Assembly: GCA_964291235.2 (NCBI GenBank)
Contig: OZ219816.1
Span: 1,312,001-1,376,000, forward strand
Length of the DNA: 64,000 nt
Origin: Vicinamibacteria bacterium
Lineage (GTDB): Bacteria; Acidobacteriota; Vicinamibacteria; Marinacidobacterales; Marinacidobacteraceae
Direction of reading: 5' to 3'
Shown here in pieces: positions 3,211 to 27,573 of this stretch (the stretch's first letter is position 1; each line of letters starts with the position of its first letter). The notes beneath the pieces were generated by a model. It saw only the letters and a list, made by a program, of their open reading frames with translations. It was not told where the DNA came from and did no database searches. A program made the position numbers and the translations under genes.

Positions 3211-3212
3211 CG

Positions 3213-8285: not shown

Positions 8286-8290
8286 GAGGT

Positions 8291-8551: not shown

Positions 8552-8577
8552 GGAAGCCTCCTTGGGGGCGTCAGGGG

Positions 8578-9093: not shown

Positions 9094-9105
9094 GGCTGTG
9101 GTCGG

Positions 9106-11764: not shown

Positions 11765-12426
11765 TCGAAAGCGGCGGCGCGATCGGCCTGCAGGTAGGTG
11801 ATGACGAGTCCCATGGGGTTGGAGGGGAGGAGTTCGGGCGGGACCTGGTCGAGGAAGGTGAACTGGAGGCTGATGGTCCAGCGTTCGCGCGTGGTTGCCT
11901 GGCCGCGCTCGAGGGTTACGAGGTCGAAGTCGGCGGTTGCCGCGTGGGGCGGCTCCGGGTTCGGGTTGATCCGGAGCACGACGCCCTGGACCTGGAGTTC
12001 GGCGGCCGTGATGCCGGCAGCCATTTGGGCGACGGCGTCGCTGTCGGCGCGGAAGGCGGCGTTCGCCAGGTCGCTGCTCAGGAAGTTCAGGGACCGGGCC
12101 CAGGACGTCTCGACCGTGGCCCGGCGGCGCGAGTAGAAGTCGGAGAGCCACTGGTTGAGGAAGTACTTGGTGGTGGGGTCGAGGGGGTCGGCCTGGGCTT
12201 CGACGGCCTCGTAGGCGAGGGCCTCGGCGCGGCCGACCTCGTCCACGCGGATGACGATGGGCTTGGGCAGCTCCACGGCGGAGAGGCGCACGACGGCGAC
12301 GAGGAGCAGTACGGCGAATCCGCCGAGGGCCAGGAGCCAGAGGCGGAGGAAGCGGTTGCTGGCGACCTGCTCGGCCCAGATCTCGGCGAACTCTCTGCCG
12401 GGGTCCGGCTTCTTGCTCCGTCCCAT
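11761..12426 (-). CDS. virB8: VirB8/TrbF family protein
   Basis: Single N-terminal TM, PKPIVIRVDEVG and C-terminal NPMGLVITY. Confidence 0.85.
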   Translation of the reverse strand: MGRSKKPDPGREFAEIWAEQVASNRFLRLWLLALGGFAVLLLVAVVRLSAVELPKPIVIRVDEVGRAEALAYEAVEAQADPLDPTTKYFLNQWLSDFYSRRRATVETSWARSLNFLSSDLANAAFRADSDAVAQMAAGITAAELQVQGVVLRINPNPEPPHAATADFDLVTLERGQATTRERWTISLQFTFLDQVPPELLPSNPMGLVITYLQADRAAAFE

Positions 12427-12439
12427 GGGCCGGTTCTCC

Positions 12440-13528
12440 CTACTTGCCCTTGCCGGCGATGGCGGCGATCTTCCCGGCGCCGCCGGTGGCGACCATGATG
12501 CCCGTGGTGGCCATGCCGGCGACGTTCATGCCGCCGCCGCCGGCGCCGCTGACGAGGGAGCTGGCGATCTCTCCGACCTTGGTGGAGGACAGGACCGCGG
12601 CGACGGCGAGAGGGACGATCCCGATGAACCAGGCGGCGGACCAGCCGAGGCTCGAGAAGTCGATGGTCGCGTTGATGAAGGTGTTGACGTAGGCCAGCGC
12701 GATGGAGGACCAGACGTAGAGCATGGCGCCGGCGACGGCGCTGTAGAGGCTGTAGACGAAGAGGGAGCGGAGCCAGCCCCAGAAGAGGAAGGAGAGGGGC
12801 TGGAAGATGAAGAATGGGACGAAGACGGGCCCGACGTAGATCAGGATGTTGATGACGACGAGGGCGTAGAGGACCTGGGCGTAGGCGAAGCAGAAGACGA
12901 GGATGAGGAGCACGCAGAAGAGCGGCAGGACGACGGCGGTGACGGAGAGGGTGTAGAGCGTGCCGCCGCCGCCGGTGATCAGGCTCCAGAGGGTCTGGGC
13001 GTCCCAGATGGCGGTGAGGTGGTTGCTGATGTTCTCGATGAGGTTCGTGAATGCCTGGAACATCTGGGCGGGCACGGACTCGACGAAGGTCTGGCTGATG
13101 AAGTTGCCGCCCGCCGGGATGATCATGGGGAACGCCATGCCGACGCCGGGGATCGGGGTCGAGTAGGTCTGCAGGATCCAGAGGGGGATGATGATGTTGA
13201 GGACCATCCGGAAGAGGTCCCAGGAGTTCCAGCCGCCTCCGCCGAAAGCGATGCGGAGGCCGGTCCAGGAGATGAGGATCACGGCGAGGCCGCGCCAGAG
13301 GGCCATGCCGGTGGCCTGGAGGGGCGAGCCGCCGGCCGCCGTGAAGATGTCGCTGAGGATCGTGTTCAGGAGCCCCATGTGGTCGGTGAGTTGTTCGACC
13401 GGGATGGTGGTGGGCAGGGCCGGGTTCGGCAGCTGTGCCGGCGGTGGCTGCCCCAGGACGAGGCTCGGGGCGAGCAGAAGCAGCCCGGCCAGGAGCATGC
13501 GTCGAACGGTCACCGGTGGTGAAGGCAT
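12440..13528 (-). CDS. virB6: VirB6/TrbL polytopic membrane protein
   Basis: Multiple TM segments, VGPVFVPFFIF..LFWGWLR and a Gly/Ala-rich tail. Start uncertain (13498-13570). Confidence 0.85.
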   Translation of the reverse strand: MPSPPVTVRRMLLAGLLLLAPSLVLGQPPPAQLPNPALPTTIPVEQLTDHMGLLNTILSDIFTAAGGSPLQATGMALWRGLAVILISWTGLRIAFGGGGWNSWDLFRMVLNIIIPLWILQTYSTPIPGVGMAFPMIIPAGGNFISQTFVESVPAQMFQAFTNLIENISNHLTAIWDAQTLWSLITGGGGTLYTLSVTAVVLPLFCVLLILVFCFAYAQVLYALVVINILIYVGPVFVPFFIFQPLSFLFWGWLRSLFVYSLYSAVAGAMLYVWSSIALAYVNTFINATIDFSSLGWSAAWFIGIVPLAVAAVLSSTKVGEIASSLVSGAGGGGMNVAGMATTGIMVATGGAGKIAAIAGKGK

Positions 13529-13590
13529 GGAGCTCAGCCGGCTGGCGATTGCTTCGCGTGCGGACGGCATGCGCCTTCGGCATGCAACTC

Positions 13591-13624
13591 GTGCATACCG
13601 TGCACATGCATACCGTTCATACGG
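13591..13624. promoter_or_regulatory. CATACCG repeat cluster upstream of virB6
   Basis: GTGCATACCGTGCACATGCATACCGTTCATACGG. Confidence 0.55.
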
Positions 13625-13642
13625 CGGGGGACGGCCCGATCG

Positions 13643-14563
13643 TCACCGGGCTCCGTAGCTGGTGGGCAGGAGCAGGCCCCGGCCCATCGCGGACGCGTTG
13701 GCCTGGAGCCAGGTGGTGGTGGCTTCGGTCTGGGTCCGGGCGGTTGTGTGTGCGCCGGCCCAGTCCGTCAGCGCCTCGCGCCGGCCGCGTTCGGCCTCGT
13801 GGCTGTCCTGGACTTGGCGGATTGCCTGGAGGGCGAGCAGCTGGTTGGTCGCGACCTGGAGTTCGGCCTGGGTGAGCTGCGCGGCGAGGACGGCCTGCTG
13901 CAGGGCGGTGCCGGAGAGGTTCGTCTGGCTCCGGAGGGTGGCGATGGAGGTCTGGGTGTCCGCGAGCTGCGCCGCGAGCTCCCGGGCGGCATCCAGGGCC
14001 GCGTAGTCGGCGGCGAGCCGCCGTTCGGCGGTGTCGCGGTTCGCGCGCCAGTCCCTGACGGCTCTTTGCCGCGTGGCGGGGTCGTTCGGGAAGAGCGCCC
14101 GGATATCGGCCACTCGGACATCGTCGACCGCGCCGAGCGCGTCGCGCCAGACCGTCGTGAGGTCGGCGCCCTGCGGGTCGGTGAGTTCGAGGAACTCCCG
14201 GGCGAGCAGGCGCGTGTCGGCATCGCGGAAGGCGGTGGTCCAGGCCGGGGGCGCGATGTGCTTGAGGAGTTCCGCCGGTTCGGAGGAGAGCTGCTCGAAC
14301 GACTGGGGCAACGCGGCGCTTGCCAAGGTCCCGAGCGCCTCCTGTCGGGCCCGGTTGATCTCCTCGCTGATCTTCTGGCTATTGAGCGTCCGGACGCCGT
14401 TCACCGCGGCGACGACGGCGGCCATGTCGAGTGAGCCACTCAGGGCGTTGACGGCGGAGACCACAGCGGAAAAACTGGAGGCCTTCAGGTCGGGGGCCGG
14501 AACGAGGAGGAGGGCGGGGACGAGGAGGAGAACGAGGCTCCAGCGGAGGGCGGTGCGGATCAT
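13643..14563 (-). CDS. Secreted helical protein, VirB5/TrbJ-like
   Basis: Signal peptide and Gln-rich coiled coil (QAELQVATNQLLALQ); lies just before virB6. Confidence 0.6.
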   Translation of the reverse strand: MIRTALRWSLVLLLVPALLLVPAPDLKASSFSAVVSAVNALSGSLDMAAVVAAVNGVRTLNSQKISEEINRARQEALGTLASAALPQSFEQLSSEPAELLKHIAPPAWTTAFRDADTRLLAREFLELTDPQGADLTTVWRDALGAVDDVRVADIRALFPNDPATRQRAVRDWRANRDTAERRLAADYAALDAARELAAQLADTQTSIATLRSQTNLSGTALQQAVLAAQLTQAELQVATNQLLALQAIRQVQDSHEAERGRREALTDWAGAHTTARTQTEATTTWLQANASAMGRGLLLPTSYGAR

Positions 14564-15840
14564 GGGAGGCTCCTGCGGTTGGACGGGAAGAGGGCGTCGC
14601 TGGTGAACCAGATCCGGAGCCGGTGGCCGGCCCGGATCGTGACGGTGGGGAGGCGGTTGAGGAAACGGCGCATGACCTGGAGTCCGCTTTCGGACGTGCC
14701 CTGGGCGACGCCGCTGCGGTAGCCGGCGAGTCCGCCGGCGTAGGGGTTGCCGCCGAGGGCGGCGAAGCCGCTCATGAGGCCGACGGCGCCGGCGGCGAGG
14801 AAGGTCGAGAAGTAGTGCCGGTCGACCTGGTCCTTGAGGGCGCCCTCGCCGAGCTGGTTGAGTCCCTGGAACTGCAGGGCCACGTGCGTTCCGTCGGGCA
14901 GGATGACGCGGTGGAAGCCGACGGCGAGCCGCTCCTGGTCCTGCCCGCGGACGGGCTGCGCGGTGCCGATGAAGCGGCTGCCGCGGGGGATCAGGATGCG
15001 CTGCCGGTCCGTGCTGTAGAAGGGCACGGCGACGGTGGCGAGGACGGGCGAGGGGAAGTCCCCGCTGAGCTGGGTGACGAGCACGGCCTCGACGAGGGAG
15101 CCCTCGTAGATGCGTTCCCAGCCGGGCGGGTCGCGGGGGAGGGAGAAGCGGGGAGGGTTGTCGTAGTCGGGGAGGTTGTTGGAATCGGGCAGCGGGACAT
15201 CGAGGGTCCCTGGAGCGGGTGTGTATCCCGATGGATCGGCGCGCGGGAGGGCCTCCGGCCCGGGGAGGGCGCCGCCCATCGCGTCTGTGGGCGCCGAAGG
15301 CGCGGCGGGCGCCGGCGTGTGGAGGCCGGGGACGGCTCCGGAGTCATCCGGGGGCGCGGCGTCCGCGCCGCGGTGGCTCTGCGCGACCGGCGAGGTCCGG
15401 AGCGACCGCAGTTGGCGCTCCATCTCTTCGAGGCGGATCGCCTGCCGCAGTTGGTGTTCCTCGGGGGTGAGCGCCTCCCCGGTGTCGGGGTCCACCGGAG
15501 GCGGACGGCCGGGGTCCGGATCTCCGGAGGCCGCCATTCCGGCGGCCTGCAGGCGGAGCTGCTGGTCGGCTTCGCGCTGCTCGGCCTGGGCGCGGAGGCG
15601 CGCCTGCAGTTCCTGTTCGCGGATCCGCCGCGGCAGCGCGTCGCCGGCGGCGGGGTTGATGATTGGCTCGTCCGCGCCGGCGGCGCTGTCAGCGTCCTGC
15701 TCCGGGTCGTCGGAGCTCAGGGAGACGCTGAGGATGAGGGCGAGGAGGAGGACGGTGATGAGGAGCACGCCGACCTTCCCGACGATGTTGGCGGGGAGCG
15801 CCCCGGCGGGCTTGGACACGAGCCGTTTCCAGGTGGACAT
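14560..15840 (-). CDS. virB10: VirB10/TrbI
   Basis: TM, Pro-rich linker, then EGSLVEAVLVT..ILIPRGSRFIG..DQVDRHY..PTVTIRAGH. Confidence 0.9.
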   Translation of the reverse strand: MSTWKRLVSKPAGALPANIVGKVGVLLITVLLLALILSVSLSSDDPEQDADSAAGADEPIINPAAGDALPRRIREQELQARLRAQAEQREADQQLRLQAAGMAASGDPDPGRPPPVDPDTGEALTPEEHQLRQAIRLEEMERQLRSLRTSPVAQSHRGADAAPPDDSGAVPGLHTPAPAAPSAPTDAMGGALPGPEALPRADPSGYTPAPGTLDVPLPDSNNLPDYDNPPRFSLPRDPPGWERIYEGSLVEAVLVTQLSGDFPSPVLATVAVPFYSTDRQRILIPRGSRFIGTAQPVRGQDQERLAVGFHRVILPDGTHVALQFQGLNQLGEGALKDQVDRHYFSTFLAAGAVGLMSGFAALGGNPYAGGLAGYRSGVAQGTSESGLQVMRRFLNRLPTVTIRAGHRLRIWFTSDALFPSNRRSLP

Positions 15841-16147
15841 GAGGGTTGTCAGCCCGGCAGGGGCGCGAAGAGAGCCTCGGGAGAAGCCCGGAGCACCGGC
15901 TGCTCGGGGAAATGGCCCGGGAACGGCCCGAAAACGGCCTCTCTCGCCGTTTTCGGGGTCCGCGCGGGCCGGACATCGTCCGGACGGCCGCGCCGTCCTG
16001 AGGCGCGGTTTGGGGCTGACGACGCGGCGGCGCGCGCGGCGCGCGCGAGAATCGGGTCCGAAGGCTGGCGTTCTCCGGGCGGTCCGGCGGACCGGCCGTC
16101 TCCGCGAGGGGGCATCCCCGAGCGGCGGGGGGAGCGGAACGCGATGT

Positions 16148-17038
16148 TCACGGCAGCGGGTCCGGGGGCGTGAAGCGCCAGCGGGCGCGTTCGTCGCCTA
16201 GCTGGAGCCAGCCTTCGCCGATGATGCGCCGGACGACGTAGAGGCCGGTCTCGGTGAGGTCGTAGGGCACCAGCGAGGGCTCGCCGTCCTTGCGCTCGTA
16301 GAGCGCGGCGGACTCCGGGGCGCGGCTCCGGAGGTAGGTGAACTGGCCGTCGTGCCACATCGCCTCGACCAGGAAGGGCCACTCGCGGGCCTTCCGGTCG
16401 AGGGTGTAGGGGAACTCGATCCGGAGCGGGTAGGCCGCCCGGTAGGCGTCGATCTCCTCGGCGGCGGCCTCCCGGGCCGCGTGCACCTGCTCGTCGGCCG
16501 CGGTCCGGATGGCCTGGAGTTCGGCGCGGGCCTGGGTGGCCATGGCCTGGTAGGACTGGACCCGGGAGCGGGCGACGAAGGCCGGCTGGTGCGCGCCGCG
16601 CGCGCTCGGGGCCGGCAGGCCCGTGGAGTCGTCGATGGGCGCGGAGCTGTCGAAACGGACCACGAGATGGGGCTCCTCGGCGCCGGACTCGGCGACGAGG
16701 AACGAGTAGATCCGGCCGGACTCGCAGACAAGGGCGATGTTCGTCGCGGCGTCGTCGGCGATGGGCTTCAGGAACGCGACGTTGGCGCTGCCGGACAGGT
16801 GCCAGTACTCGGCGTCGCCCACCACGAAGTCGAGGATGGTCTCGTGCGCCGGGAGGGTGATGACGGTGGTGTGGCGGACGCGCGTCCGGAGCTGCCAGAC
16901 GGTGTCCTCGGGCGTGTCGTCGAGCCGGAGGATGTGCCCGTCCTGGGGCGCGGCGAGTGGCGCGAGCCCCTGGCAGAGCAGGAAGACGAGCAGGAAGAGG
17001 AGAAGGCGGGGCGGGACCTGGGGGAAGCCGGGGATCAT
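16148..17038 (-). CDS. virB9: VirB9/TrbG
   Basis: Signal peptide, TTVITLP..DFVVGD..W..FLKP..TNI and C-terminal WHDGQFTYLR. Confidence 0.88.
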   Translation of the reverse strand: MIPGFPQVPPRLLLFLLVFLLCQGLAPLAAPQDGHILRLDDTPEDTVWQLRTRVRHTTVITLPAHETILDFVVGDAEYWHLSGSANVAFLKPIADDAATNIALVCESGRIYSFLVAESGAEEPHLVVRFDSSAPIDDSTGLPAPSARGAHQPAFVARSRVQSYQAMATQARAELQAIRTAADEQVHAAREAAAEEIDAYRAAYPLRIEFPYTLDRKAREWPFLVEAMWHDGQFTYLRSRAPESAALYERKDGEPSLVPYDLTETGLYVVRRIIGEGWLQLGDERARWRFTPPDPLP

Positions 17039-19470
17039 GCGGGGCGCTCCATCTGGCGGGCGAGGGCGGCGAGGCCGCCGGTGAGGCCGTGCGCCGCGAC
17101 CGCTTCGGCGCGCCGCTCGGCGTCGGTGGGGGAGGACGTGTAGAGCCAGTAGCTCTCGGGGTCCACGTGGAGCCGGAGCACGCCGGCGGCCTGCGAGCGC
17201 CGCAGGTAGAGCTCCTGCTTGGGGACGAGCTGGCGGATGGTGGCCATCTCCGTCTCGTTGAGGCGGAAGATCTCGCCGACCTGGTCGGGCAGGTCGGGGT
17301 TGGCCAGGAACAGTTTCGTCGGCATGGACTCGAGGAGCCCCTTGGCCGCCGGGGTGGCGGTCACGTCGATCGCCGACTGGGTGGCGAGGACGAGGGCGGC
17401 GTTGCGCTTGCGCCAGGTCTTCGCGGCCTCCGCGAGGTAGGCGAGGATGGCGGGGTCCTTGAGGTACCGCCAGGCCTCGTCGACGACCATCAGCTTGACG
17501 CGGGCGGCCTCGGCCGGGTTGTCGAGGGCGAGGCGCATGCGCTCGAGGAGGTAGAAGAGCGCGGCCTCGCAGAGATCCTCGTGCTCGGCGGCGCCCGCGA
17601 GGTCGATGACCTGCCAGTCCTGGAGCTGGAGTTCGTCGGCGCCGGGGTTGTCGAAATAGGCGGCCCAGGCCCCGTTGCCGTGCCAGCGGCTCATCGCGGG
17701 CCACATCGCTTTCGGAAGCGAGGAGACGAAGGCGGAGAGCGAGCGCTGGGACTCCGGGAAGGCGTAGAGGTCCTCGACGCGGCTCCGGAGCTCCGACGGA
17801 TCCCGTCCGCTGAGCTGGTAGCCGCCGATCTTGAGCAGGCGGGTGATCCAGCCGGTGAGGAACTGGAAGGTGCGCTCACCGGGCGGCAGGGAGAAGGGCT
17901 TGAGGGCGAGCGCGCCGTCGGCGCGCTCGGGCGCGAGCTGCAGGTAGCCGCCGCCCAGGAACTGGGTGAGCCACCGGTAGCTGCCGCCGAGGTCCAGGAT
18001 GAGGACCCGCGGCTGGTACTGGAGGGCCTGGACGAGCAGGAAGTTGAGCGTGAAGCTCTTGCCCGCGCCGGTGGCCCCGAGGATGAGCGTGTGGCCGACG
18101 TCGGCCCCCGCGAAGAGGTCGTAGTGGTACGAGGTCTTCCAGGGCGTCTCGAAGGTGGCGAGCGCCGGCCGGGAGAGGTGCTTGCTGGTCCGGTGGCCGC
18201 GCGGAGGCCCGAAGAGCGGGGCGAGGCAGGCCGCGACGCCGGCGCTCGCGAAGACGGAGCGGATCTGGCGCTTCCGCGGCATCGCGGGCATGCGGGCGAA
18301 CCAGCTGGCGAGCTGCCCGTAGCCCTCGCGGATGAGCTTCGCGTCGCACCCGGCGAAGATCCGGCGCAGTTCGGCGTCCAGCCGCTCGGTCTCCGCCAGC
18401 GGGCCGTGCAGCGCGACGGTCAGCGACACGTCGCCGTAGCCGACGCCGTCGGCCTCCAGTTCGACCAGGGCGCCCCCGAGACGGTCCGCCTCGGCGTCGG
18501 CGGCCGCATCGACCATGGCGGAGGCCGTGCCTTCGGTGTCCTGCATGTGCGCCGACATCGAGTAGCGCTTCGAGAAGTAGTGGCGCTGCGCGCTCCGGAT
18601 CTTCCGCCGGGCGGCCTCGAGGGCGTAGGGACGCCACTCGAGCGAGAGCGTGAACCGCGCCTCCATGCGGGCGAGTTCGTAGAGGAGGTTGGCGCGGGCG
18701 GTCGCCGGCGGCGAGAGCAGCGAGTAGAGGATGACGGGCTCGCCGTCCAGCCGGAGGTGCCGGCGCTCGGCCTCGAGTTCGGAGAGCGGCAGCCGCCAGT
18801 TCAGGGCGCTGGGGGCGGCGTTGCCCTGCCACTCCAGGCCGGGGCGGTTGACGAGTTCGCTGAGGAAGGGGGTGGCCTCCGCCGCCGGCAGCAGCCGGAG
18901 CGGCGTGACCTCGTTGGTGAGCGCGGCCGAGGCCTCGACGAGCTGGCGGAAGCGGGTGGCGGCCTGGCGCACCTCGGCGAGCAGGTAGACGGACTCGTGG
19001 GGGTTGCGGCGGGCGCGGAGCCAGTTGCGCGCCGACTCGACGAGCCAGTGGCCGCCCCGGGGGCCGGTGCGGCCCGCCGGCTCGAGCCGGGGGTTGTGGC
19101 TCCAGACGACGAACGTCCGGAGGTCGTGGATCCGGGAGAGGAGGAAGTCGCGCCGGTTGCTCTGGGACAGGGCGGCGACGCCGTCAAGGCCGTTGACCTC
19201 CGGCAGGACGCCGGGCCGCCGGAGCAGGTAGAAGTAGAGGCGGGTATCGGTATCGAGGGAGGAGAGCAGGCGCTGCCAGCGGTTGAGGATCCGGTCGAGC
19301 TGCTCGGGGGTGCGGCCGTCCAGGACGGCGGGCTCCAGTTCGGCGGCCGCCAGGAGCTCGCCGGCGCGGGTGATGCAGAAGGGGTGCTCCTTCAGCCAGC
19401 CCCAGTAGGGCAGCTCGTCGGCGAGCGCGCCCGCCGCGGCGAAGTCCTGCTGCTCGGCCTTGAGGTTCAT
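17035..19470 (-). CDS. virB4: VirB4/TrbE ATPase
   Basis: GHTLILGATGAGKSF, LILDLGGSY, MVVDEAWRYL and WRKRNAALVLATQS. Confidence 0.93.
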   Translation of the reverse strand: MNLKAEQQDFAAAGALADELPYWGWLKEHPFCITRAGELLAAAELEPAVLDGRTPEQLDRILNRWQRLLSSLDTDTRLYFYLLRRPGVLPEVNGLDGVAALSQSNRRDFLLSRIHDLRTFVVWSHNPRLEPAGRTGPRGGHWLVESARNWLRARRNPHESVYLLAEVRQAATRFRQLVEASAALTNEVTPLRLLPAAEATPFLSELVNRPGLEWQGNAAPSALNWRLPLSELEAERRHLRLDGEPVILYSLLSPPATARANLLYELARMEARFTLSLEWRPYALEAARRKIRSAQRHYFSKRYSMSAHMQDTEGTASAMVDAAADAEADRLGGALVELEADGVGYGDVSLTVALHGPLAETERLDAELRRIFAGCDAKLIREGYGQLASWFARMPAMPRKRQIRSVFASAGVAACLAPLFGPPRGHRTSKHLSRPALATFETPWKTSYHYDLFAGADVGHTLILGATGAGKSFTLNFLLVQALQYQPRVLILDLGGSYRWLTQFLGGGYLQLAPERADGALALKPFSLPPGERTFQFLTGWITRLLKIGGYQLSGRDPSELRSRVEDLYAFPESQRSLSAFVSSLPKAMWPAMSRWHGNGAWAAYFDNPGADELQLQDWQVIDLAGAAEHEDLCEAALFYLLERMRLALDNPAEAARVKLMVVDEAWRYLKDPAILAYLAEAAKTWRKRNAALVLATQSAIDVTATPAAKGLLESMPTKLFLANPDLPDQVGEIFRLNETEMATIRQLVPKQELYLRRSQAAGVLRLHVDPESYWLYTSSPTDAERRAEAVAAHGLTGGLAALARQMERPA

Positions 19471-19760
19471 TACTCGAGGAGGTCGAGGTGCCAACGGGCC
19501 GGCTTGCCGGCGTCGTAGCGGGTGTGCGTCTCGGCGCTCGCCTTGACGATGGAGAGCATGTTGGGGTCCTCGCGCCAGGCGAGCAGACCGAGGCCGTAGA
19601 GGACGAGGAAGATCACGCCGCCGGTGAGGAGCGAGTTGATGGCGTTCCACATCGCCATGCCCAGGGTGCCGGCGAGCAGGAACCACCGCCTCTCGACGCC
19701 CATGATGGTGAGCGGCCGGCTCAGGGCGGGGTGGCCGTGCCAGGCGCGCCTGCCGGTCAC
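19470..19760 (-). CDS. virB3: VirB3/TrbD
   Basis: ALSRPLTIMGVERR, two TM segments and DP; abuts virB4. Confidence 0.85.
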   Translation of the reverse strand: MTGRRAWHGHPALSRPLTIMGVERRWFLLAGTLGMAMWNAINSLLTGGVIFLVLYGLGLLAWREDPNMLSIVKASAETHTRYDAGKPARWHLDLLE

Positions 19761-19773
19761 GGCTCAGCGCCGA

Positions 19774-19818
19774 CCGTATGCACGGTCAATACCGGATGTC
19801 GTCATACGATGCATACGA
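19774..19818. promoter_or_regulatory. GTATG/CATAC cluster between virB2 and virB3
   Basis: GTATGCACGGTCAATACCGG (19776-19795) matches 2858-2877 at 19/20 positions. Confidence 0.65.
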
Positions 19819-19846
19819 GCACTAGTCCCTGTTGGCGGTGGGCGCT

Positions 19847-20143
19847 CTAGGTGAACCAGTCCAGGAAGTTGCCCGCGGCCATCGTCATGCCGAGGCCGAA
19901 GATGATCCCGGCGATCGCCTTCTTGGAGCCGCCCTCCCCGAAGGCGAACATCAGCCCGCCGATCACGATCGCGATGAGCGACAGGCCGCGCGCGATCGGG
20001 CCGGTGAAGGCGGTCTGGATGACGTTGACCGCGTTTTCCCAGGGGCTGGTGCCCGCCTTCCCGGCAAACGCCGTGCCCGGGACGAGCATGGCGGCAGCCG
20101 CCAGGGTCAGGAAAACGAAGAGACGTGAGGGGATGCGCTTCAT
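19847..20143 (-). CDS. virB2: VirB2/TrbC pilin
   Basis: Signal peptide, then PWENAVNVIQTAFTGPIARGLSLIAIVIGGLMFAFGE; RBS AGGAGG. Confidence 0.9.
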   Translation of the reverse strand: MKRIPSRLFVFLTLAAAAMLVPGTAFAGKAGTSPWENAVNVIQTAFTGPIARGLSLIAIVIGGLMFAFGEGGSKKAIAGIIFGLGMTMAAGNFLDWFT

Positions 20144-20165
20144 GGCAGGGACCTCCTGGTCTGGA

Positions 20166-20483
20166 CTATTCGGTGAAGTCGCCCTGCTCCTGTTCGGCAA
20201 GGCGGCGGGAAAGCTCGGGATCGCCGTCGCCGCGGCGCACCGAGCGCTCCGCGAGGTCGACCTTCCGGCCGATGTCGTAGAGGCCCAGGCTCCGCAGGAT
20301 CCCCGCGGCGGCGACGACGGCGGCGAGGAACGCGCTCCCCGCGTAGGCGGTGACCGGCCACCAGTACTCGGTGACGATGACCCGCCGGTAGGGGGCCAGA
20401 TAATCAAAGTGCGACGCCGCGAAGAAGACGACGGCGGCCGTGAGGGCGACGCCGACGCCGAGGCTGATCTTCCAGGGATGCAC
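20166..20483 (-). CDS. Small two-TM hypothetical protein
   Basis: Two hydrophobic helices and a charged tail; fills the gap before virB2. Confidence 0.6.
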   Translation of the reverse strand: MHPWKISLGVGVALTAAVVFFAASHFDYLAPYRRVIVTEYWWPVTAYAGSAFLAAVVAAAGILRSLGLYDIGRKVDLAERSVRRGDGDPELSRRLAEQEQGDFTE

Positions 20484-20484
20484 G

Positions 20485-21387
20485 TCAGATCTCCATGAGT
20501 TCCGGCGGCCGCGGGTCGCGCCCGCTGCCCCCCCGCTGTGGTCTTGCCGCCTCCCGGAACGCCTTCGCGACCTTCGCGATCATCCGCCCGGCCTTGCCGT
20601 TCGCGCCGTGGAGCGCGAACCCGGCGGCGGCCTTGGCCGCGACCGCGCCCGCGTTGTAGTGCTAGGTGGTGACCTCGATGTTCACCCGCCCGAACGTGTC
20701 GCGGCCGCCGGCATCGGCGGCGGCGTATTCGAGCTGCGCGTCCGGGAAGGACACCGCCCCCTCCGGAGTGTGGGGGAGTCCGAGTTCGGCGGCCGCGCGA
20801 CGCCGTTCCTGGTCCGCGGCCTCGCGCCCCGCCCGGGCGCGGGCCCGTTCGCTCCGCCGCACCACGGCGCTCCGCAGCTCGGCGTCGAGCCGGACGCGGA
20901 CCGCCGTGACGCCCTTCGCGGCGAGTTCCTCCCGGGCGGCCAGGACCGCGCGGTAGACGGCGACGTCGTGCGCGAGGTTCTTGCGGCGTTCGATCCCGCT
21001 CCAGAAGCGCTGGTCCTCGGCGTAGCCGCGGTCGGCCGCGGCGTCCCCGGCCTCCCTCGCGCCTTTCGGGGTGGCGGCCAACACGGTGAAGGAGCCACCG
21101 TTGGGGCCGTCGGCCTGGTGCTCCGTCACGAGGCCCTCGCGCTTGAGCCGGTTGATGCCGGCGCGCGCGGCGAAGGGGTGGCCGTCGAAGTGCACGTCCG
21201 CGATGTCCCGGTAGGCCACGGCGCGGTGCGCGCTGATGTCCGCGAGCGCGCCTTTCTCGCGCCGGACGCGGCCGCGGGACCCGCCCTCCCGGGTCCCCTG
21301 TTCCCGGCGGTGGCCCGAGCGCCGCAGTTCGCGGTCGCGGAGGACTTCCGGCCGGTCGGGGCGGCGGGGTTCGGGACGACGGCTCAT
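20485..21387 (-). pseudogene. Replication-relaxation (MOBC-like, PD-(D/E)xK) relaxase with an in-frame TAG at 20662-20664
   Basis: wHTH-like N-terminus, LAHDVAVY and FPDAQLEY..VNIEVTT-TAG-HYNAGAVAAKAAAGF. The frame continues 58 codons to TGA at 20485, 1 nt before the next gene. Confidence 0.6.
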
Positions 21388-21396
21388 CGACGGGGA

Positions 21397-22392
21397 TCAG
21401 CGCCCGGGCGTCATCGCCGGCGCCTGGCGCTGGGCCACGGGGGGCGGAGGAGTCTGGGGAGCACGCTCGGGCGTCGCCCCATCGCGCGCGGCGCGCGCCT
21501 CGCGGGCGATGTCCCGTAGCTCGCCGCGGGCTGGCTTGATGAGGTTCCGCGCGATGCGGTGCCCCTCGGAGGCCGCCCGGTGCATCTCCCGCGGGTCCTC
21601 CCTAAGCGCCTTGAGCCAGGCCTGTTTGTGTTCGTCGCCGTGGTCGGGTTGATAACCGATCCCCAGGCGGTCGCCAGCGGTCATGGTGGCGATCTCGACG
21701 CGGAGTTTTTCGCGGATGTGCCCGTCGCCGTCGAGACCCTCGCTGTGGGTCTGCTTGAAGGTCTCGCGGGCCATCCGGCTCTCATGTCCGGAGGCGTGCG
21801 CCATGTTCCGGAGCGCGGTGCTGTAGTAGTGCTCCGGGCTCCGGAACTGCTTCCGCTCGGGCAGGACCACCTGGTCGTGGTCCTTGCTGTAGTAGTTCTG
21901 GTCGCCGGGGGAGTGCTTGATCTCGACGGCGGAGGCGGCGATCACGGCGTCGGCGCCGCGGTGCGCCTGCCAGTCCGGACGCCGCGGCCGCCGGTCGAGC
22001 TTCAGGCCGCGCACCTGCTCCACGTTGTAGACGATGGAGGTGCGCCAGAGCGGCTTCTGCCCGTTGCGGTCGTCGCGGAAGAGGATCCGTTCGCCCGGGC
22101 CCTTCGGCGGCTGGCCGCCCGCCTTCTTGATCTGGGCGTTCGTGATCCAGCGGTTGTCGGTGAACCCGCGGTCCTGGCCGCGGCTGGCCAGGTAGAGCGC
22201 GTTGCCGCCGGTATAGGCGCGGCCGGTGACGGCGTTCCGGGGCAGGACGGGCTCACCGGCCTTCGCTGCGCGCTGCCAGGGCGCGGTGCCGGCCTCCATC
22301 TGCCGGATGGCGGTCTCGGCGAACTTCCCGTAGTAGCGGCTGGGCGAGTCGATCGCGGGCTTCGGGGAGGGAGAGGTTTTGGCTTCAGCCAT
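21397..22392 (-). CDS. ardC: ArdC-like ssDNA-binding/antirestriction protein with a degenerate zincin motif
   Basis: GTAPWQR, PRNAVTGRAYTGGN and DNRWIT; STALRNMAHASGH in place of HExxH. Confidence 0.85.
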   Translation of the reverse strand: MAEAKTSPSPKPAIDSPSRYYGKFAETAIRQMEAGTAPWQRAAKAGEPVLPRNAVTGRAYTGGNALYLASRGQDRGFTDNRWITNAQIKKAGGQPPKGPGERILFRDDRNGQKPLWRTSIVYNVEQVRGLKLDRRPRRPDWQAHRGADAVIAASAVEIKHSPGDQNYYSKDHDQVVLPERKQFRSPEHYYSTALRNMAHASGHESRMARETFKQTHSEGLDGDGHIREKLRVEIATMTAGDRLGIGYQPDHGDEHKQAWLKALREDPREMHRAASEGHRIARNLIKPARGELRDIAREARAARDGATPERAPQTPPPPVAQRQAPAMTPGR

Positions 22393-22473
22393 GTTGGTTG
22401 CTCCTGGTTCAGGGGTTCGGGACAGCGAGTCGTAGAGCGCCGCCGCGGTGGTCCGGAACGGCGTGTTCGCTGT

Positions 22474-23550
22474 TCATCGTCCGGGCGTCAGGGCCGGCTG
22501 TTGGCGCGCGGGCGTGGGAGGCGTGATGCCGGGCACGCGCATCTCAGTTGCATCCGGAGGCGTGGGGCTGTCGCGCCCGACCTGCTGGATACGTTCCCTG
22601 GCGGGCTCCAGCAGATAACGGGAGATCCGTTCCGCTTCGGCAGCCGCGCGGTAGATCTCGCGAGGTTCGTCGGAAAGAGCCTTGATCCAGCTCTTGACGT
22701 ACGCGGCGCTGTTGCCGTGGCCGCCACGGGGCAGGTGGCCGACGCCGATCCGCTCGCCGGCCATCATGGCGCTGATCTCGGCGCGGAGTTCCTCGCGGGC
22801 GTAGGCGGGGCTGCCGAAACCGGCCTGTACGCCGTTGTAGAAGGTCTTCCGGTCCATGCGGGTCTGATGGCCGGACGCATGGGACAGTTCGTGAAGGGCG
22901 GTTGCGTAGTAGGCCTCCGCGCTGGGGAACTGGCCGCGCGCCGGCAGGACGATCTGGTCGGCCTGCGGGCTGTAGTAGGCGCGGTCGCCCGCGACGTGCC
23001 TGATCGGGACCTTGGCCGTTTCGATGACGGCTTCGGCGGCTTGATGCGCCTGCCAAGCCGCGACCGCCGCTTGCCGTGGGGGAAGGTCCAGATCACGGGT
23101 CTGTTCGACGTTGAACACGGTGTAGACGCGTTGCAAAGGGAATCGTTGTTCGGGGCGTTCATAGACCGGCCGGCCCTCCCCATCGACCAGGTGGCGTCCG
23201 GCTTGGTCCTTCTTCGGAACGAGTTTCTGGGTCCGGAAGAAGACAATGTGTTCGCCTCGTTCGCCCTTGCGGACGTGGCCTCCGGCTTCCCTGATCTGGC
23301 GGTATGTCGCCCAGCGGTTGTCGGTGAACCCGCGCTCCGGACCGCGAAGGGAGAGACGGAGAGCGTTGCCTCCGGTGTAGGCATTGCCGGTGATGGCGTT
23401 CCGGGGTAGCGCCTGCTCGCCAGGCTTCCAGGGACGCTGCCAGGGTGCAGTGCCCGCCTCGATCTGCTTGACGATCGCGGCGGCGAATTGCTCGTGATAT
23501 TCGGTGATGCGGTCCCGCCCGCGGGGAGTGTTGGCTTTGGCAGCGGCCAT
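22474..23550 (-). CDS. ardC: ArdC antirestriction protein (ssDNA-binding plus zincin domain)
   Basis: PWQRPW, YTGGN, RWATYRQI..HVRKGE, TVFNVEQ, ATALHELSHASGH and YAREELRAEI. Confidence 0.92.
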   Translation of the reverse strand: MAAAKANTPRGRDRITEYHEQFAAAIVKQIEAGTAPWQRPWKPGEQALPRNAITGNAYTGGNALRLSLRGPERGFTDNRWATYRQIREAGGHVRKGERGEHIVFFRTQKLVPKKDQAGRHLVDGEGRPVYERPEQRFPLQRVYTVFNVEQTRDLDLPPRQAAVAAWQAHQAAEAVIETAKVPIRHVAGDRAYYSPQADQIVLPARGQFPSAEAYYATALHELSHASGHQTRMDRKTFYNGVQAGFGSPAYAREELRAEISAMMAGERIGVGHLPRGGHGNSAAYVKSWIKALSDEPREIYRAAAEAERISRYLLEPARERIQQVGRDSPTPPDATEMRVPGITPPTPARQQPALTPGR

Positions 23551-23580
23551 GTTGGTTTCTCGCCGGGCGCGGGGGGGGCG

Positions 23581-23799
23581 TCAGTCCCGGTCTTCGTCGG
23601 CCAAATCCAGGAGCTCAGCTGGAAGTTCGCCGAACTCGATGGGGTCGCCGTTCTCGTCGGCGCCGGGGACCCCGAAGGCCGCGATGACCTCGCGTGGGGC
23701 GGCGATGGGCAGCCCACGGTCGAACACGCGAGCGAACTCCTCCTCGGTGTCGACGCTGAGGGCGGGCTTGCCCTCGACGATGATTTCTCGGATTGCCAT
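23581..23799 (-). CDS. Small acidic hypothetical protein
   Basis: 72 aa with 19 D/E versus 6 K/R; RBS AAGGAG. Confidence 0.6.
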   Translation of the reverse strand: MAIREIIVEGKPALSVDTEEEFARVFDRGLPIAAPREVIAAFGVPGADENGDPIEFGELPAELLDLADEDRD

Positions 23800-23816
23800 A
23801 GGTGCTCCTTCCGCGG

Positions 23817-24712
23817 TTAGCGGGATGGCTGCGCCCGCGCCTGCGGGCGCTGGATGTCGAGGAATGCCTTGCGGGTGGTCCGCTCGGCGTAGTAGTGGGG
23901 GTCGTGCTTTTCGCCGGCGCGGCGCTTCTCGAGCGCGGCGATGACCCTCTCCTGGGGGACTCCCTTGCGGAGCTGGTCCTTCGCATAGGCCCAGTCCCGG
24001 GCGGACTGGCTGGTGTCCCGGCCCTCAATCTGACGGCCGGGGGCGGGAGAGCGGTTTGGGGAAAGCTCCACCCTGGGTAGATGCGCGAACGCATGGGGGT
24101 GTGTCGCGCGGCCGGCGTGGTCGGTCCAGCGCACGGGCGCATCGTCCCGCTCCGGCTTCTTGTTGCGGAAGCCCGGGAGCCGCATCACGCGCGCAACGTC
24201 GGCCACCGAGGAGTCCCCGCCGTATTCGGCCGCCAGGCGGCGCATGGTGTCCTCCGCCTCCGGAGCCGTCCAGGCGTCCGGATCCGCGTGCCAGATCACC
24301 TGGTAGTTGTGGCGCGAACTCCGGACCACAGCCGCAGGCGGGGGCAGGGAACCGGCATGCACGTCGGCGAGGACGCGGTGGAGGGACTTGGGGCCGTTGC
24401 GGTCCAGGTCGAGCTGAAGGCGGCGCACCTTCGCCACGTCCTGCTTCTCGCGGCGGCGCCGCTGTGGGTTGACGGGGTTCATCGACACGAAGATGTCGTA
24501 GCCCTGGGCGTTCAGGGCACGAAGCCACGCCTGGAACTTCGGCGCAGTGACGGCTCGCACCTGTCGGATTCGCTGTTCCGGGTGGCGCTCTGCGACCCGG
24601 TCGATCGCGACTAAGGCGAGATGTTCAGTGTCAGCGGGATAGAGCGTCCGGATATACGCCGTGGCCTGGTCCGGATCTTGCGGTGTGTGTGTGTGTGTGT
24701 GTGTGTGGTCAC
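23817..24712 (-). CDS. RepB'-type (RSF1010-like) DNA primase; 5' end interrupted by a (GT)12 tract
   Basis: LNAQGYDIFVSMNP, LQLDLD, VRSSRHNYQVIW, GGD..ARVMRLPGFRNKK and DTSQSARDW. The frame is open upstream of 24560 up to the repeat; the GTG at 24712 is 2 nt out of frame. Confidence 0.8.
24683..24707. repeat. (GT)12G dinucleotide microsatellite
   Basis: Read directly from the sequence. Confidence 0.97.
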
Positions 24713-24838
24713 GGGTTTTGGGTTCGGAACCGGTTATCTATCACACTCCGGGTGGTGATGGCGAATTCGGACACCTGCTCTGGCGACAGTCCGGGTGTTA
24801 CTGAGCCGGTCGGCTGAGCTTTTCGCGTTCGTAGTTGA

Positions 24839-24912
24839 CCCGCCGCGCTAGCGGCGGGAGAGGAAGGGGCCGCGAAGCGGAGCCCGACCGGAGGCGCGCG
24901 ACGAAGTCGCGC
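24839..24912. other. Cluster of short hairpins, putative ssi/primase site of oriV
   Basis: CCCGCCGC-GCTA-GCGGCGGG, CCGC-GAA-GCGG and GCGCGAC-GAA-GTCGCGC, between the iterons and the primase gene. Confidence 0.45.
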
Positions 24913-25068
24913 TCGATGGCACCATCAGGCGGGTGAGGTTAGGGCGGGAGGCCGGATTTTCAAGTCCGGCCGACAGGCCCTTTTTTTCTCCTCCCCCCCT
25001 CCGAAGGGTCGGGGTAGGGGAAGGAGCGAACGGAAGTCATTGGTTTTGCGCGTAAATTCGGGCAAGAA

Positions 25069-25176
25069 CGTGACCGGAGTACACGTCCAGCGTGACCGGA
25101 GTACACGTCCAGCGTGACCGGAGTACACGTCCAGCGTGACCGGAGTACACGTCCAAGCGTGACCGGAGTACACGTC
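25069..25176. repeat. Five tandem 22-bp iterons (putative oriV)
   Basis: CGTGACCGGAGTACACGTCCAG x3, one 23-bp copy and one 19-bp copy, ending 28 bp from the stop of the putative rep. Confidence 0.9.
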
Positions 25177-25204
25177 GCCTAAGCGGGGACGGATTTGCGA
25201 CGTT

Positions 25205-26620
25205 TCAGTCGTCGCTGTCGTTGACGTGTGTCGTTGGCGGGAGGATCCGGCCAGGCGTGATACGGCCGACAGCGCCGGCCTCGTGGAGCGTGGAAAGAAT
25301 GCGTCGGATTCGCTCAAGACGCTTGCGTCTCCCAGGGGCCGAAACGGTGTCGCCCGACGGGTAGAAGAGAGCCATGAGATCCGCGGGGGTGAGCGGGTGA
25401 TAGCGCTCCGGATCGTCGGCATGCCGCCAGTGGACGATCTTCTTGTTGCGGCGGATCGGATAGAGGGTCTTGCCGGGTTTGTGCCATTGGTAGGCGAGCC
25501 CGATCAGGCCGCGATAGGCGAGTGCGGACCGCGCGCCCCAGTAGCGGAGGCGAGGCATGTCCACGGCGGGGCCGTTCTCGGATCCGGGCGGGTAGAGGAC
25601 GCGCACGTGGAAACGCGAGTCGAGGCCGGCGCCGATGGCAGGGGGCAAGGCCTCGAGCGAGATGACGCGGCGGTCCGTTGGATCGCCGGTTGCCGGGTCG
25701 AGCCAGCGGACCCTTGCGGCGTCCGAGTCGTAAAAACGGAGGGCTTCGCGAAGCGCGGGCCAATCCCGCCCCACGCGCCAATTGGCGGCTCCGTTCTGCC
25801 GGAGCCAGTTGACGAGATCCCGGACCGTGAACTCAAGCAGCGCCCCATCCCGGTGGTCCCGCCGGTCGAGCGGCACGGCCGCGAGAAACTCCGTCCCGAG
25901 CCGCAGGTTGATCGGGGCGGCGGAATGCCCGCCGCCGCCTGCGAAGGTAGGCCCGCCTGCACGGTCGAAGGCGGCAAGCCAGGCGGGGATCTGCACCGTG
26001 GGCGCGCGCGGGTCAGAGAATCCCGGCAGTGTCGGCGCAGGATCGCTCGGCGCGCTGAGCGAAGCCGGCAGGGATTGCTGTTGGGAATGCACGCCAGCGG
26101 CGGGCATCATCAGGGTGCCCGCCGGCAGGATGGGGTCTTTCCGGACGGTCGGGAGGACGGGAAAAGCGGCCTGGACGACTTCGTCCAGCACGGATCTGCT
26201 GCGCTGGGGATCAGCCCAGATGTTGCTCATCTGTTCGAGCAGGAAGCGCCAGGCTTCGCCATGCTCGAGAACCTTCTGGTGCCAGACGTGCTTCCGGGAG
26301 AAGTCCTCCAGAATCGGAAGGCTGGCGAGCTGCTGCGCGAGATTCCGGAGCCGCGTGGCCGGCTGCCCGTACGGGTCGACGGCGTTGTTCCAGCGCTTCA
26401 GGCGGTGGGGGTTGAGCGCCTCCTGGAACACGCGGCGCGAATACTGGGTTGCGATCGAGAGGAGGAGTTTCCGGCGCTGCCGGAAAGCCTCTCGGTCGGA
26501 GGGAGTAGCGTTCGGGGCAGCCCGGTCCGCGAGTATGGCGTCGAGCGCCTGCGGCTCGCCCGGGCGGCGACGCGCCGGATCTTCACCGGAAGTCGCTTTC
26601 GCGACTTCCGATAATGATGC
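25205..26620 (-). CDS. Putative replication initiator (Rep); frame open from the dif spacer, first usable start GTG 26431
   Basis: Adjacent to the iterons, with wHTH-like segments (FTVRDLVNWL..WPALREAL; RIRRILSTLHEAG). There are 63 stop-free codons upstream of 26431, up to TAA at 26621-26623. No family match could be verified. Confidence 0.6.
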   Translation of the reverse strand, partial: ASLSEVAKATSGEDPARRRPGEPQALDAILADRAAPNATPSDREAFRQRRKLLLSIATQYSRRVFQEALNPHRLKRWNNAVDPYGQPATRLRNLAQQLASLPILEDFSRKHVWHQKVLEHGEAWRFLLEQMSNIWADPQRSRSVLDEVVQAAFPVLPTVRKDPILPAGTLMMPAAGVHSQQQSLPASLSAPSDPAPTLPGFSDPRAPTVQIPAWLAAFDRAGGPTFAGGGGHSAAPINLRLGTEFLAAVPLDRRDHRDGALLEFTVRDLVNWLRQNGAANWRVGRDWPALREALRFYDSDAARVRWLDPATGDPTDRRVISLEALPPAIGAGLDSRFHVRVLYPPGSENGPAVDMPRLRYWGARSALAYRGLIGLAYQWHKPGKTLYPIRRNKKIVHWRHADDPERYHPLTPADLMALFYPSGDTVSAPGRRKRLERIRRILSTLHEAGAVGRITPGRILPPTTHVNDSDD

Positions 26621-26631
26621 TTATGTAAAGT
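26604..26631 (+). other. dif: dif site (XerC arm - 6-bp spacer - XerD arm)
   Basis: ACTTCCGATAA-TGATGC-TTATGTAAAGT, compared with B. subtilis dif ACTTCCTAGAA-TATATA-TTATGTAAACT. It coincides with the G/C skew switch and the mobile/core boundary. Confidence 0.88.
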
Positions 26632-26670: not shown

Positions 26671-27573
26671 TCACCCTTCCTCCCCAAACGCCGCGACGTC
26701 GCGGTGGAACACGAACAACGCGTCCACGTCCTCCGAGGGCGACTCGAAGTTGTAGGTCCTGCCGCCGCGCACCTTCAGCCGCAGGTTGTTGTCCAGATAG
26801 TCGATTTCAAACCGTTCCGCCTGCCCGAACGGCAACTGGAACGCATCCTTGTGGTCCGTCCGGTAGTCAAACCCGTCCGCTGTCGCGACCAGCACCCCCT
26901 CACACGATCCGAACCGGTGCTTGTGCACCACCGGCACCCGCACGTCCAGCGTCGCCACCGAGTCGCCGAAGTCCACGCGCACGGGCACCGCCCGCCGGCC
27001 GACTTCCACTCGCCGGGAAACGACGTCGTGGCCTTCGACGGAAACCGTCAGGTTGTATCGCCCGGGCTGGAGATCCGCGATGGTGACCGGCGTGTTCCCC
27101 TTGAAGTTCCGATCCAGAAAGACATTCGCCCCCGCCACATCGCTCTCCACGACGATCGAACCCAGCATTTCGGTGAGCGTTGCGGCCAGCGATCGAGTTC
27201 GCCCACCGCGGATGGTGACGCTGACCTCCAGCGGGTGGAAGCCTTCTTTTTCGATGCGAACCGGAAACTCCCCGACGTCCAAATCCTCCCAGGTGCCCGG
27301 TACGGTGCCCAGCATCCGGCCGTTCAGGAGCACGCTCGCGCCATTCGTGCCTTCAATCTGCAGGGTGCCGGTGGTCGGCGCCGGCGGCGGAGGAGGTGGT
27401 GGCGCCCGGTCCGGCTCAGGCGCCTCGACGGGTGGCGCCTCCTCGACGGGAGCCGGCTCCTCGGGAGGGGCCGCCGGCTCCTCGTTTCCACCACAACCGG
27501 CGAGGAGTGCCAAGCCGATAAGAGGTGTCAGCCTCCAGGACAGGGCGCGCGTCCACTCAGCACGACGAGTCAT
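26671..27573 (-). CDS. PEGA-domain lipoprotein
   Basis: Lipobox LLAG-C, Pro-rich linker and two PEGA repeats (GASVLLNG..GTVP; GANVFLD..GNTP). Confidence 0.85.
   Translation of the reverse strand: MTRRAEWTRALSWRLTPLIGLALLAGCGGNEEPAAPPEEPAPVEEAPPVEAPEPDRAPPPPPPPAPTTGTLQIEGTNGASVLLNGRMLGTVPGTWEDLDVGEFPVRIEKEGFHPLEVSVTIRGGRTRSLAATLTEMLGSIVVESDVAGANVFLDRNFKGNTPVTIADLQPGRYNLTVSVEGHDVVSRRVEVGRRAVPVRVDFGDSVATLDVRVPVVHKHRFGSCEGVLVATADGFDYRTDHKDAFQLPFGQAERFEIDYLDNNLRLKVRGGRTYNFESPSEDVDALFVFHRDVAAFGEEG

Follow-up and report, generated by a model that had tools for sequence, protein, structure and literature searches.

The element in dif and the open rep frame

The window analyzed here, a 64-kb stretch of contig C2 of a Vicinamibacteria bacterium (genome G000 in this work), carries on its left side an integrated conjugative, plasmid-like element that has its own integrase and sits in the chromosomal dif site. 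The gene in question is rep, which encodes a presumed replication initiator at the right end of the element and whose reading frame runs, without a start codon, into the recombination (att) site itself. The element measures 29,543 bp between two dif copies (C2 1309078-1338620, i.e., window -2922 to 26620). Read in the direction of the minus strand, it begins with rep, five iterons, a RepB-type primase and two ArdC genes, continues with the conjugation set, i.e., VirB2, VirB3, VirB4, VirB9, VirB10, VirB6, VirB8, a TraG/TrwB-like type IV coupling protein (T4CP) and VirB11, and ends with ParA, AbiEii, a Xer-like tyrosine recombinase and a zinc-ribbon open reading frame (ORF). All of its long ORFs are intact. 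The element has an integrase of its own, and direct repeats flank it at one specific site; both traits are those of integrative and conjugative elements (ICEs), and both are likewise seen in the elements of two related genomes, G005 and G011. No Pfam relaxase was found in the part of the element inside the window; in G005, an ORF (L061 11335-12243) reaches 25.2 bits with the Replic_Relax model, against a cut-off of 25.3 bits, and window 20662-21387 may be its counterpart, judged from gene order.

The right end of the element (attR) coincides with dif. Along the 2.1-Mb contig, the cumulative GC skew has its maximum at C2 1338646, 15 bases off this site, and a dif lies at the same place, beside the same PEGA-domain gene, in all 15 other genomes of the genus; for these two reasons we take it as the true chromosomal dif. 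The window holds only this copy, and the sole other copy in the genome (C2 1309060 = window -2940) lies 2.9 kb left of the window, at attL. This left copy has 23 nt in common with dif and then continues with a degenerate XerD side, i.e., the element has a genuine dif on one flank and a modified dif on the other. The dif spacer of G000, TGATGC, is unique in the genus, and GGATGA is the spacer in eight of the 15 relatives. On the 1.34-Mb contig C1 of G000, neither a search for the 29-mer that allowed as many as 8 mismatches nor one with the arm pattern found a dif-like site; this contig may belong to the same chromosome as C2, or a different site may be in use there.

Two observations concern the surroundings of dif. 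An inverted copy of the XerC arm is found 4 nt before the native dif in 9 of the 15 relatives (loci L016-L030, around 1400-1440), and the palindrome that it forms might serve as another XerC site or as an accessory site for FtsK or Xer. Left of attL (L001 12760-13060 = C2 1308760-1309060), there are about 2.3 copies of a repeat of about 130 bp with several XerC-arm-like pieces in both orientations, which may be scars of past integrations and excisions at dif.

Upstream of GTG 26431, the rep frame contains zero stops and zero ATG, GTG or TTG codons for 63 codons (26432-26620, minus strand), and it is closed only by a TAA at 26623-26621, the first three bases of the XerD arm. The original prediction, made from the letters alone, had described this open and startless run and its course across the XerC arm and spacer to the XerD-arm TAA; when we read the frame again, the peptide was identical and the coordinates agreed. 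It had also cautioned that 63 open codons could be a matter of chance, and the random-frame background computed in this genome (68% GC) bears this caution out. Since random frames are often open here, the significance of the open frame must rest on comparison. The codon-usage score of the 63-codon extension is 0.10 versus 0.30 in the rep body.

Comparison with homologous proteins places the GTG inside the gene. The homologues do not start at about 26431, a result that would have spoken against the original prediction: of the 63 codons, 45-50 are covered by the two closest, P0001 (70% identity) and P0002 (54% identity), both of which align with extension codons 17-63. The wider family has the same N-terminal helix region well upstream of the GTG-encoded valine, with P0004 reaching more than 40 residues upstream of the conserved RLxRW motif. 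Because the homologues align upstream of it, the valine that GTG 26431 specifies lies in the interior of a conserved region. Nothing like a Shine-Dalgarno sequence can be seen ahead of this GTG. In the related genome G006, there is no ATG, GTG or TTG at all in the 52 codons before RLxRW. The features of the junctions and of rep are collected in Table 1.

Table 1. Coordinates of the features of the element and its junctions. Positions are those of the window unless a locus or contig is named.
Feature	Position	Strand	Remark
Element, part inside the window	1..26620	-	almost all genes on the minus strand
RepB-type primase	23817..24560	-	Pfam PF16793, E 4.6e-24
Five 22-bp iterons	25067..25176		just downstream of rep; presumed vegetative replication origin
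Rep body	25205..26431	-	408 codons from the sole upstream GTG, plus stop 25205-25207
Startless 63 codons of the rep frame	26432..26620	-	codons 1-16, att site and hairpin; codons 17-63, conserved Rep N-terminal region
Hairpin/palindrome	26587..26610	+	10-bp stem, part of XerC arm and inverted copy; z -2.78
Identity with attL, crossover region	26600..26622	+	23 nt: XerC arm, spacer and 2 nt; attL copy at C2 1309057-1309079, outside the window
Chromosomal dif (attR)	26603..26631	+	GACTTCCGATAATGATGCTTATGTAAAGT
Parts of dif	to 26614; 26615-26620; 26621-26631		XerC arm; spacer; XerD arm
TAA from host XerD arm	26621..26623	-	closes the rep frame upstream when integrated (frame reading)
Host PEGA-domain gene	26671..27573	-	conserved right flank of dif; Pfam PF08308; 73-81% identity in 15/15 other genus genomes
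Conserved non-XerD arm of site B	L001 13096-13110		and matching places in L051-L056
Zinc-ribbon ORF	L001 13383 downwards	-	130 codons from ATG; CPxCG...CPxC; reads outward over site B and left dif copy into the chromosome
Xer-like integrase	L001 14030-15097	-	just left of the window; Pfam 5e-20

The circular form and the zinc-ribbon frame

When the element of G000 is closed in silico at its two dif copies, the rep frame is open for 178 codons above GTG 26431, with an ATG in frame 165 codons above it. The ORF in this circle is 573 codons long and consists of the zinc ribbon, a linker, site B, eleven codons to site A, and Rep. The circles of G005 (37,169 bp) and G011 (35,003 bp) have an ORF of 585 codons each, with both the zinc-ribbon and the Rep motifs. 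The original prediction had proposed circularization as the check, with a promoter and an in-frame ATG to be looked for: the ATG is there in G000, and likewise in G005 and G011, whereas a sigma-70-like site upstream of the ATG was not found in G000. As the circle has no stop between the two ORFs, translation from this ATG must enter rep.

The att part of this frame is double, i.e., attP has two sites (A and B) in tandem, 33 nt apart, that mimic the XerC arm and spacer, and each of them reads SLSEVAK in this frame. Site B is a third XerC-arm/spacer copy, nine bases beyond the left dif copy, with the spacer GGATGA. A degenerate, stop-free XerD-side arm had been foretold for attP, and it is present; a genuine XerD arm always puts a TAA into the rep frame. 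Site A is the one used in G000, where dif has the spacer TGATGC, and site B is used in two other hosts. A contig from sequencing run X5, from another host, joins the region upstream of rep to both sites: it contains rep upstream, site A, 8 letters, site B, a genuine XerD arm and a flank like that of G002, and the metagenome contig L014 has the same arrangement. Beside site B, the XerD-side arm reads GGATGA followed by a GTACGGTC-like block that is conserved among the elements, within a linker that is otherwise unconstrained; judged from this conservation, the element's own recombinase may bind at the non-XerD arm of site B.

The upstream partner of rep in the circle, the zinc-ribbon ORF, has no Pfam match itself. 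Its five invariant cysteines lie in a CPxCG knuckle and in CPxC. In an ungapped comparison of the first 66 ribbon codons among six genomes, the changes at codon positions 1/2/3 are, e.g., 6/9/27, 5/5/26 and 2/5/22, i.e., a 3-5-fold excess at third positions; this excess is the reason to regard the ribbon as a protein under purifying selection, and it excludes that the ribbon is conserved as DNA only. Upstream of the ribbon ATG, five of six aligned genomes have TTGACG and, about 20 nt downstream of it, another conserved block; G000 is the one that does not have them. The ribbon resembles the N terminus of a host IstB/DnaC-like AAA+ protein (39% identity over 57 residues, E 3e-9), which may be the host helicase loader, and this likeness suits a role of the ribbon in replication. 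N-terminal zinc-binding domains of the DnaC/DnaI type bind helicase, as is known from DnaI, and the ribbon may make a similar contact. The host protein with its N-terminal zinc ribbon is encoded at L064 448-1173 (minus strand; G000 C2 1807948-1808673), and 12 of the other 15 genus genomes also gave matches in the ribbon search, to open frames 244-316 codons long.

The ribbon ORF is found with 69-78% identity in six further genomes of the genus (G005, G006, G007, G011, G012 and G015), which were traced through this ORF and not through Rep. Where both ends share a contig, the ORF lies about 35-37 kb from dif. In all seven genomes, G000 included, its first codon is ATG, no stop precedes the att site, and the XerC arm is read as TTA TCG GAA. 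At the other end, also in seven of seven, the ORF next to dif begins right after the XerD-arm TAA with the XerC arm in the same frame, and the identical in-frame TAA is found in the six related integrated elements and in L014. The frame is kept although the lengths on both sides differ: the distance from ATG to the arm is 93, 104 or 105 codons, and that from the stop to RLxRW is 46, 47, 52 or 72 codons (83 in L014). The sole start-like codon before RLxRW is a GTG for the conserved valine (G006 has none).

We consider it likely that the initiator gene contains attP in its 5' part, so that integration leaves a startless Rep at attR and excision rebuilds the gene; this was the core of the original prediction, and it is now supported by the in-frame circles, by the homologue coverage of the extension and by the frames in seven of seven genomes. 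In the circular form, a promoter-like region and the ATG would be followed by the ribbon, the linker with its two XerC-arm/spacer mimics, the N-terminal domain and core of Rep, and the iterons. Recombination with dif in the linker would place the ribbon and its ATG at attL, 29.5 kb off and pointing out of the element; at attR, the Rep body would remain startless, with the TAA of the host XerD arm as its upstream limit. Because integration separates the ATG and ribbon from the Rep body, the full-length initiator would be made only after excision. The integrated copy would then be silent, and the iteron origin would rest in the chromosome terminus and be switched on in the circle, possibly with the fused ORF transcribed and translated as one. 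Under such a model, database entries that give "rep" 405-408 residues probably stem from truncated gene models.

An alternative is that there are two separate genes, i.e., the ribbon ORF makes a small protein of its own whose tail crosses the att site by chance, and Rep is made in both states from GTG 26431 or from a non-canonical codon just inside the element, with the continuity of the frame as a by-product of GC-rich sequence and of the common descent of the att module. Open frames are indeed common here: among random frames of 63 codons, 51% are open (13.5% open and startless), and among those of 178 codons, 24%. The conserved valine is encoded by GTG in six of seven genomes and this codon might start a shorter protein; gene callers took the GTG here and in near-identical relatives (405-408 amino acids). 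The predicted starts of P0001 (three members, all 458 amino acids, on contigs of 29-53 kb) and P0002 lie just inside, i.e., just after, the att site, and could be genuine. Set against these points, a start at the GTG would lose 45-50 residues whose conservation extends to P0001, P0002 and P0004, G006 has no start-like codon before the motif, and the GTG is not preceded by a Shine-Dalgarno-like sequence. The ribbon ORF never stops before att in any of the seven genomes, its frame is that of rep in all seven although the left side falls into three length classes and the right side into four, and the circle brings no stop between the two. On this evidence, we regard the two-gene explanation as unlikely.

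The split initiator gene nevertheless has to be weighed against further observations. As the seven elements are kin, they do not count as seven independent cases. In the linker, changes are not in excess at third positions (5/6/7, 5/5/5), i.e., its amino acids are unconstrained, as two separate genes would also have it, and its translation is argued only from frame and openness; the linker behaves as an unconstrained spacer, judged from its base changes, of which only the frame and the openness are kept. Codon usage scores are -0.38 in the ribbon and -0.70 in the linker, where the 5th percentile of host genes is 0.17, and GC content at third codon positions (GC3) is not raised in either of them. 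A sigma-70 scan gave no minus-strand site upstream of the ribbon ATG in G000; please note that sigma-70 may not be the type of this host. A fused zinc-ribbon-Rep protein was absent among 3,821 longer candidates, and Rep residues 1-140 as a query returned only a 405-amino acid call with a GTG start and no fusion; both of these database results weigh little. A CxxC...CxxC motif was found in none of the 150 Rep-family representatives listed, and for that reason Rep proteins of the family seem to work without a ribbon; the two-gene explanation can likewise claim these findings.

Three smaller results concern the region upstream of rep. Sigma-70 scanning likewise found no minus-strand site upstream of rep, which we weigh neither way, the promoter type of the host being possibly another one. 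An Rfam search with E up to 0.1 gave no match in 24000-27000. A frameshift feeding rep from the out-of-frame GTG ORF at 26398-26586 (minus strand) was considered and rejected, as its product is unlike the N termini of the homologues.

Related elements, the recombinase and excision

The architecture described above is found at dif in seven of the 16 genomes of the genus and on metagenome contigs (P0151-P0153, L014 and run X5), in at least three diverged lineages that use two different att sites. The G005 element is syntenic with that of G000, having the integrase, ParA, coupling protein, VirB6, B10 and B4, three ArdC genes, the primase and 21-bp iterons, and a 483-codon ORF adjoins its dif as the counterpart of Rep. 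This ORF and the Rep of G000 are far apart in sequence (BLASTP E 1), and hhalign pairs them at 91.5% (E 8.6e-7). Four metagenome proteins are 54-59% identical to the ribbon; three of them continue through the XerC arm into the inverted-arm flank that is typical of the genus, and because of this read-through we take them to come from integrated copies.

Such a distribution bears on the possibility that the arrangement is an accident or a remnant, i.e., that the Xer dimer-resolution site of a plasmid recombined with dif and left a dead-end cointegrate in which no switch has evolved. Plasmids commonly carry Xer sites, and elements that exploit Xer recombination include plasmids (PMC9765430). The sequencing depth of the element is also below that of its flank in the runs X1 (9.15 versus 10.9), X2 (42.5 versus 51.7) and X4 (33.3 versus 51.1). 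An accident, on the other side, would hardly recur with the same architecture in seven of 16 genomes and in metagenome contigs, across at least three lineages and two att sites, with intact ORFs, a ribbon under purifying selection and an integrase gene beside attL; the element copies in four runs show zero differences. We regard this explanation as highly improbable.

Which recombinase acts is a separate matter. The exchange may be carried out by host XerCD, by the element's Xer-like integrase, or by both. The integrase is a tyrosine recombinase with a SAM-like N-domain that matches the XerD model with E 1e-31 and 110 bits, at a cut-off of 329.6 bits; the host itself has a XerD of 333.9 bits, above the cut-off, and a second Xer paralogue of 309 bits. 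The presence of both host proteins leaves room for a mechanism in which the element depends on host XerCD alone, with exchange on the XerC side as in TLC phage and the gonococcal genetic island, and the element's own recombinase serves another purpose. The attP copies reproduce the XerC arm and spacer exactly next to a degenerate other arm, and site A does not have the arm conserved at site B of the related elements, both of which speak for this mechanism. In contrast, a Xer-like recombinase gene lies about 1 kb from attL in both G000 and G005, and the conserved non-XerD arm at site B (GGATGA and the GTACGGTC-like block) would fit the binding site of an element-encoded protein. Dependence on XerCD alone thus appears to us possible but rather doubtful.

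The sequencing runs contain possible traces of the free form. In X1, X2 and X4, contigs end at 26622 and start at 26600, i.e., at the borders of the 23-base repeat, which is shorter than the k = 31 used in the assembly of these contigs; breaks at these two positions are expected only if attP/attB-type junctions coexist with attL and attR. X2 also has one contig with an empty site, whose left flank differs from that of G000. We consider it likely that the element excises. Two points weaken this: the empty-site contig may come from a second strain, and the attP branch in the three runs is deduced from contig ends and was not read directly. X1 and X4 do contain a second, closely related strain, seen as variant contigs with 5-6 differences each at 26851-26935 and 27466-27538.

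Taking the related elements together with the junctions, we lean, with somewhat less assurance than for the split gene itself, toward a dif-targeting conjugative family in which the initiator is split by the element's own att site. The att DNA would serve as a protein linker and the host XerD arm as the stop, excision would be the sole route to a ribbon-bearing initiator, the topology would work as an on/off switch, and a second att site, gained in the present copy and fitting a different dif spacer, would widen its host range.

Known systems and the Rep family

The active initiator and origin of an integrated replicon would fire out of turn in the chromosome, here in the terminus, and the known remedies are repressors or promoters that are rebuilt at the junction. 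If the gene is split as proposed, a coding sequence cut by integration would be a fail-safe that needs no regulator; such a device has so far been described for archaeal integrases and a few phage repressors, and not for the initiator of a bacterial conjugative element. DNA of an att site would then be readable as protein, and dif-targeting elements could pair a Xer mimic with a recombinase of their own.

IMEXs, i.e., integrative mobile elements that exploit Xer, are described as inserting a dif mimic at the chromosomal dif, with one genuine and one modified dif as flanks, and as including plasmids and islands (PMC9765430, PMC9226527). The present element resembles CTXphi, TLCphi, the gonococcal genetic island and LME-1 in its dif target, its dif mimic and its degenerate XerD side; it differs from them by its own Xer-like recombinase, by two tandem att sites with different spacers and by an att site in the coding sequence of the initiator. 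The likeness to TLC and the gonococcal genetic island that the original prediction had drawn thus holds for the degenerate XerD arm, but not for the picture of an IMEX that lacks a recombinase, given the Xer-like recombinase and the full VirB-type system. We do not file the element as an IMEX, because IMEXs by definition use host recombinases. A full-text search of the literature brought up no split rep gene for any IMEX, and none is known to have been reported.

The closest parallels in principle are the "suicidal" integrases of the SSV type in viruses and plasmids of archaea (SSV1, pTN3, pT26-2), where attP lies inside the element's own ORF, integration splits it and excision restores it; according to the review that describes them, recombinase genes that split themselves are known from archaea alone (PMC8371274). 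The common trait is an att core inside an ORF of the element that is whole only in the free form. In the SSV-type elements, however, it is the integrase that is split, and here it would be the initiator of a bacterial conjugative element, with the integrase whole. In mycobacteriophage BPs and its relatives, whose immunity depends on integration, attP lies in a regulatory gene, the integrated and free forms encode different proteins, and integration serves as a switch, as reported in PMC4557955; there, the repressor loses its 3' end and the short form is active, whereas here the initiator would lose its 5' end, together with promoter, start and N-domain, and the short form would presumably be silent. 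The haloarchaeal virus SNJ2 rebuilds a replication operon on excision, which is said to safeguard the switch to replication (PMC13107129). SNJ2 is similar in that replication functions are assembled only after excision, and different in that its joining is transcriptional and concerns int and a rolling-circle Rep, whereas here the joining would be translational, within one ORF of an iteron-type replicon of a bacterium, and the target is dif. An outward promoter by attL of ICEclc, Pcirc, drives a gene at the other end only in the circle (PMC5812530); that fusion is transcriptional and lies upstream of an integrase gene that is itself complete, whereas here a coding sequence is interrupted. A search of the main texts of papers found no replication initiator split by attP in a bacterial element.

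As in iteron plasmids, the rep gene lies beside 21-22-bp direct repeats, and the same layout is seen in small plasmids of the related genome G001; unlike the initiators of described iteron plasmids, Rep matches no described family (e.g., not the winged-helix Rep_3/RepA type). We call it an iteron-type initiator on the basis of its gene context, and iteron binding is putative. No Pfam, NCBIfam or PHROG match was found for Rep, a search of PDB sequences gave only a chance match (E 0.23), and a tblastn search against 72,556 PLSDB plasmids gave zero matches. Among 60 aligned members of the Rep family, none has a family match but one, to CheR_N, which is unrelated to replication. Rep has 608 relatives in a library of 1.8 billion proteins; two contig scans of genomes (with the Rep protein and with alignment A1) gave no relative, none above 39% identity came up when 41 relatives, 401 class genomes and 28 family genomes were searched, and in the other 15 genomes of the genus the best match to the Rep of G000 has 36% identity (G001), i.e., there is no near relative. 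Tandem repeats of 21-22 bp lie just 3' of rep in 21 of 21 homologue loci (L002-L014 and L035-L047, including the window and the near-identical L014), and also in G005. The XerC-arm motif was found in none of 20 loci of distant Rep homologues, and therefore the att site inside rep is not a trait of the whole family. This Rep family with its iteron arrays is probably an undescribed family of plasmid initiators; if so, a large unnamed family would be present in poorly sampled bacteria.

In G001, the Rep homologues lie on small contigs that are concatemers, with 7.8 and 9.5 kb as their periods; the other ORFs scanned there match only mobilization families (MobA/VirD2, MobC/NikA) or no family. The contigs C2, C5, C8 and C12 of that genome (loci L048 and L049) repeat themselves with periods of 7.8, 9.5, 13.8 and 16.4 kb, and because of these periods we take the small contigs as concatemer assemblies of plasmids. 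Two further observations concern the cargo of the elements at dif. ArdC-like anti-restriction genes, with an ArdcN and a zincin peptidase domain, occur in tandem, two in G000 (window 21397-23550) and three in G005 (L061 12247-15590). Within the type IV secretion block of the window, an ORF at 10074-11915 (minus strand) matches the spermidine-synthase part of a fused major facilitator superfamily (MFS)/spermidine-synthase model with E 1.4e-30, which is odd in a conjugation operon.

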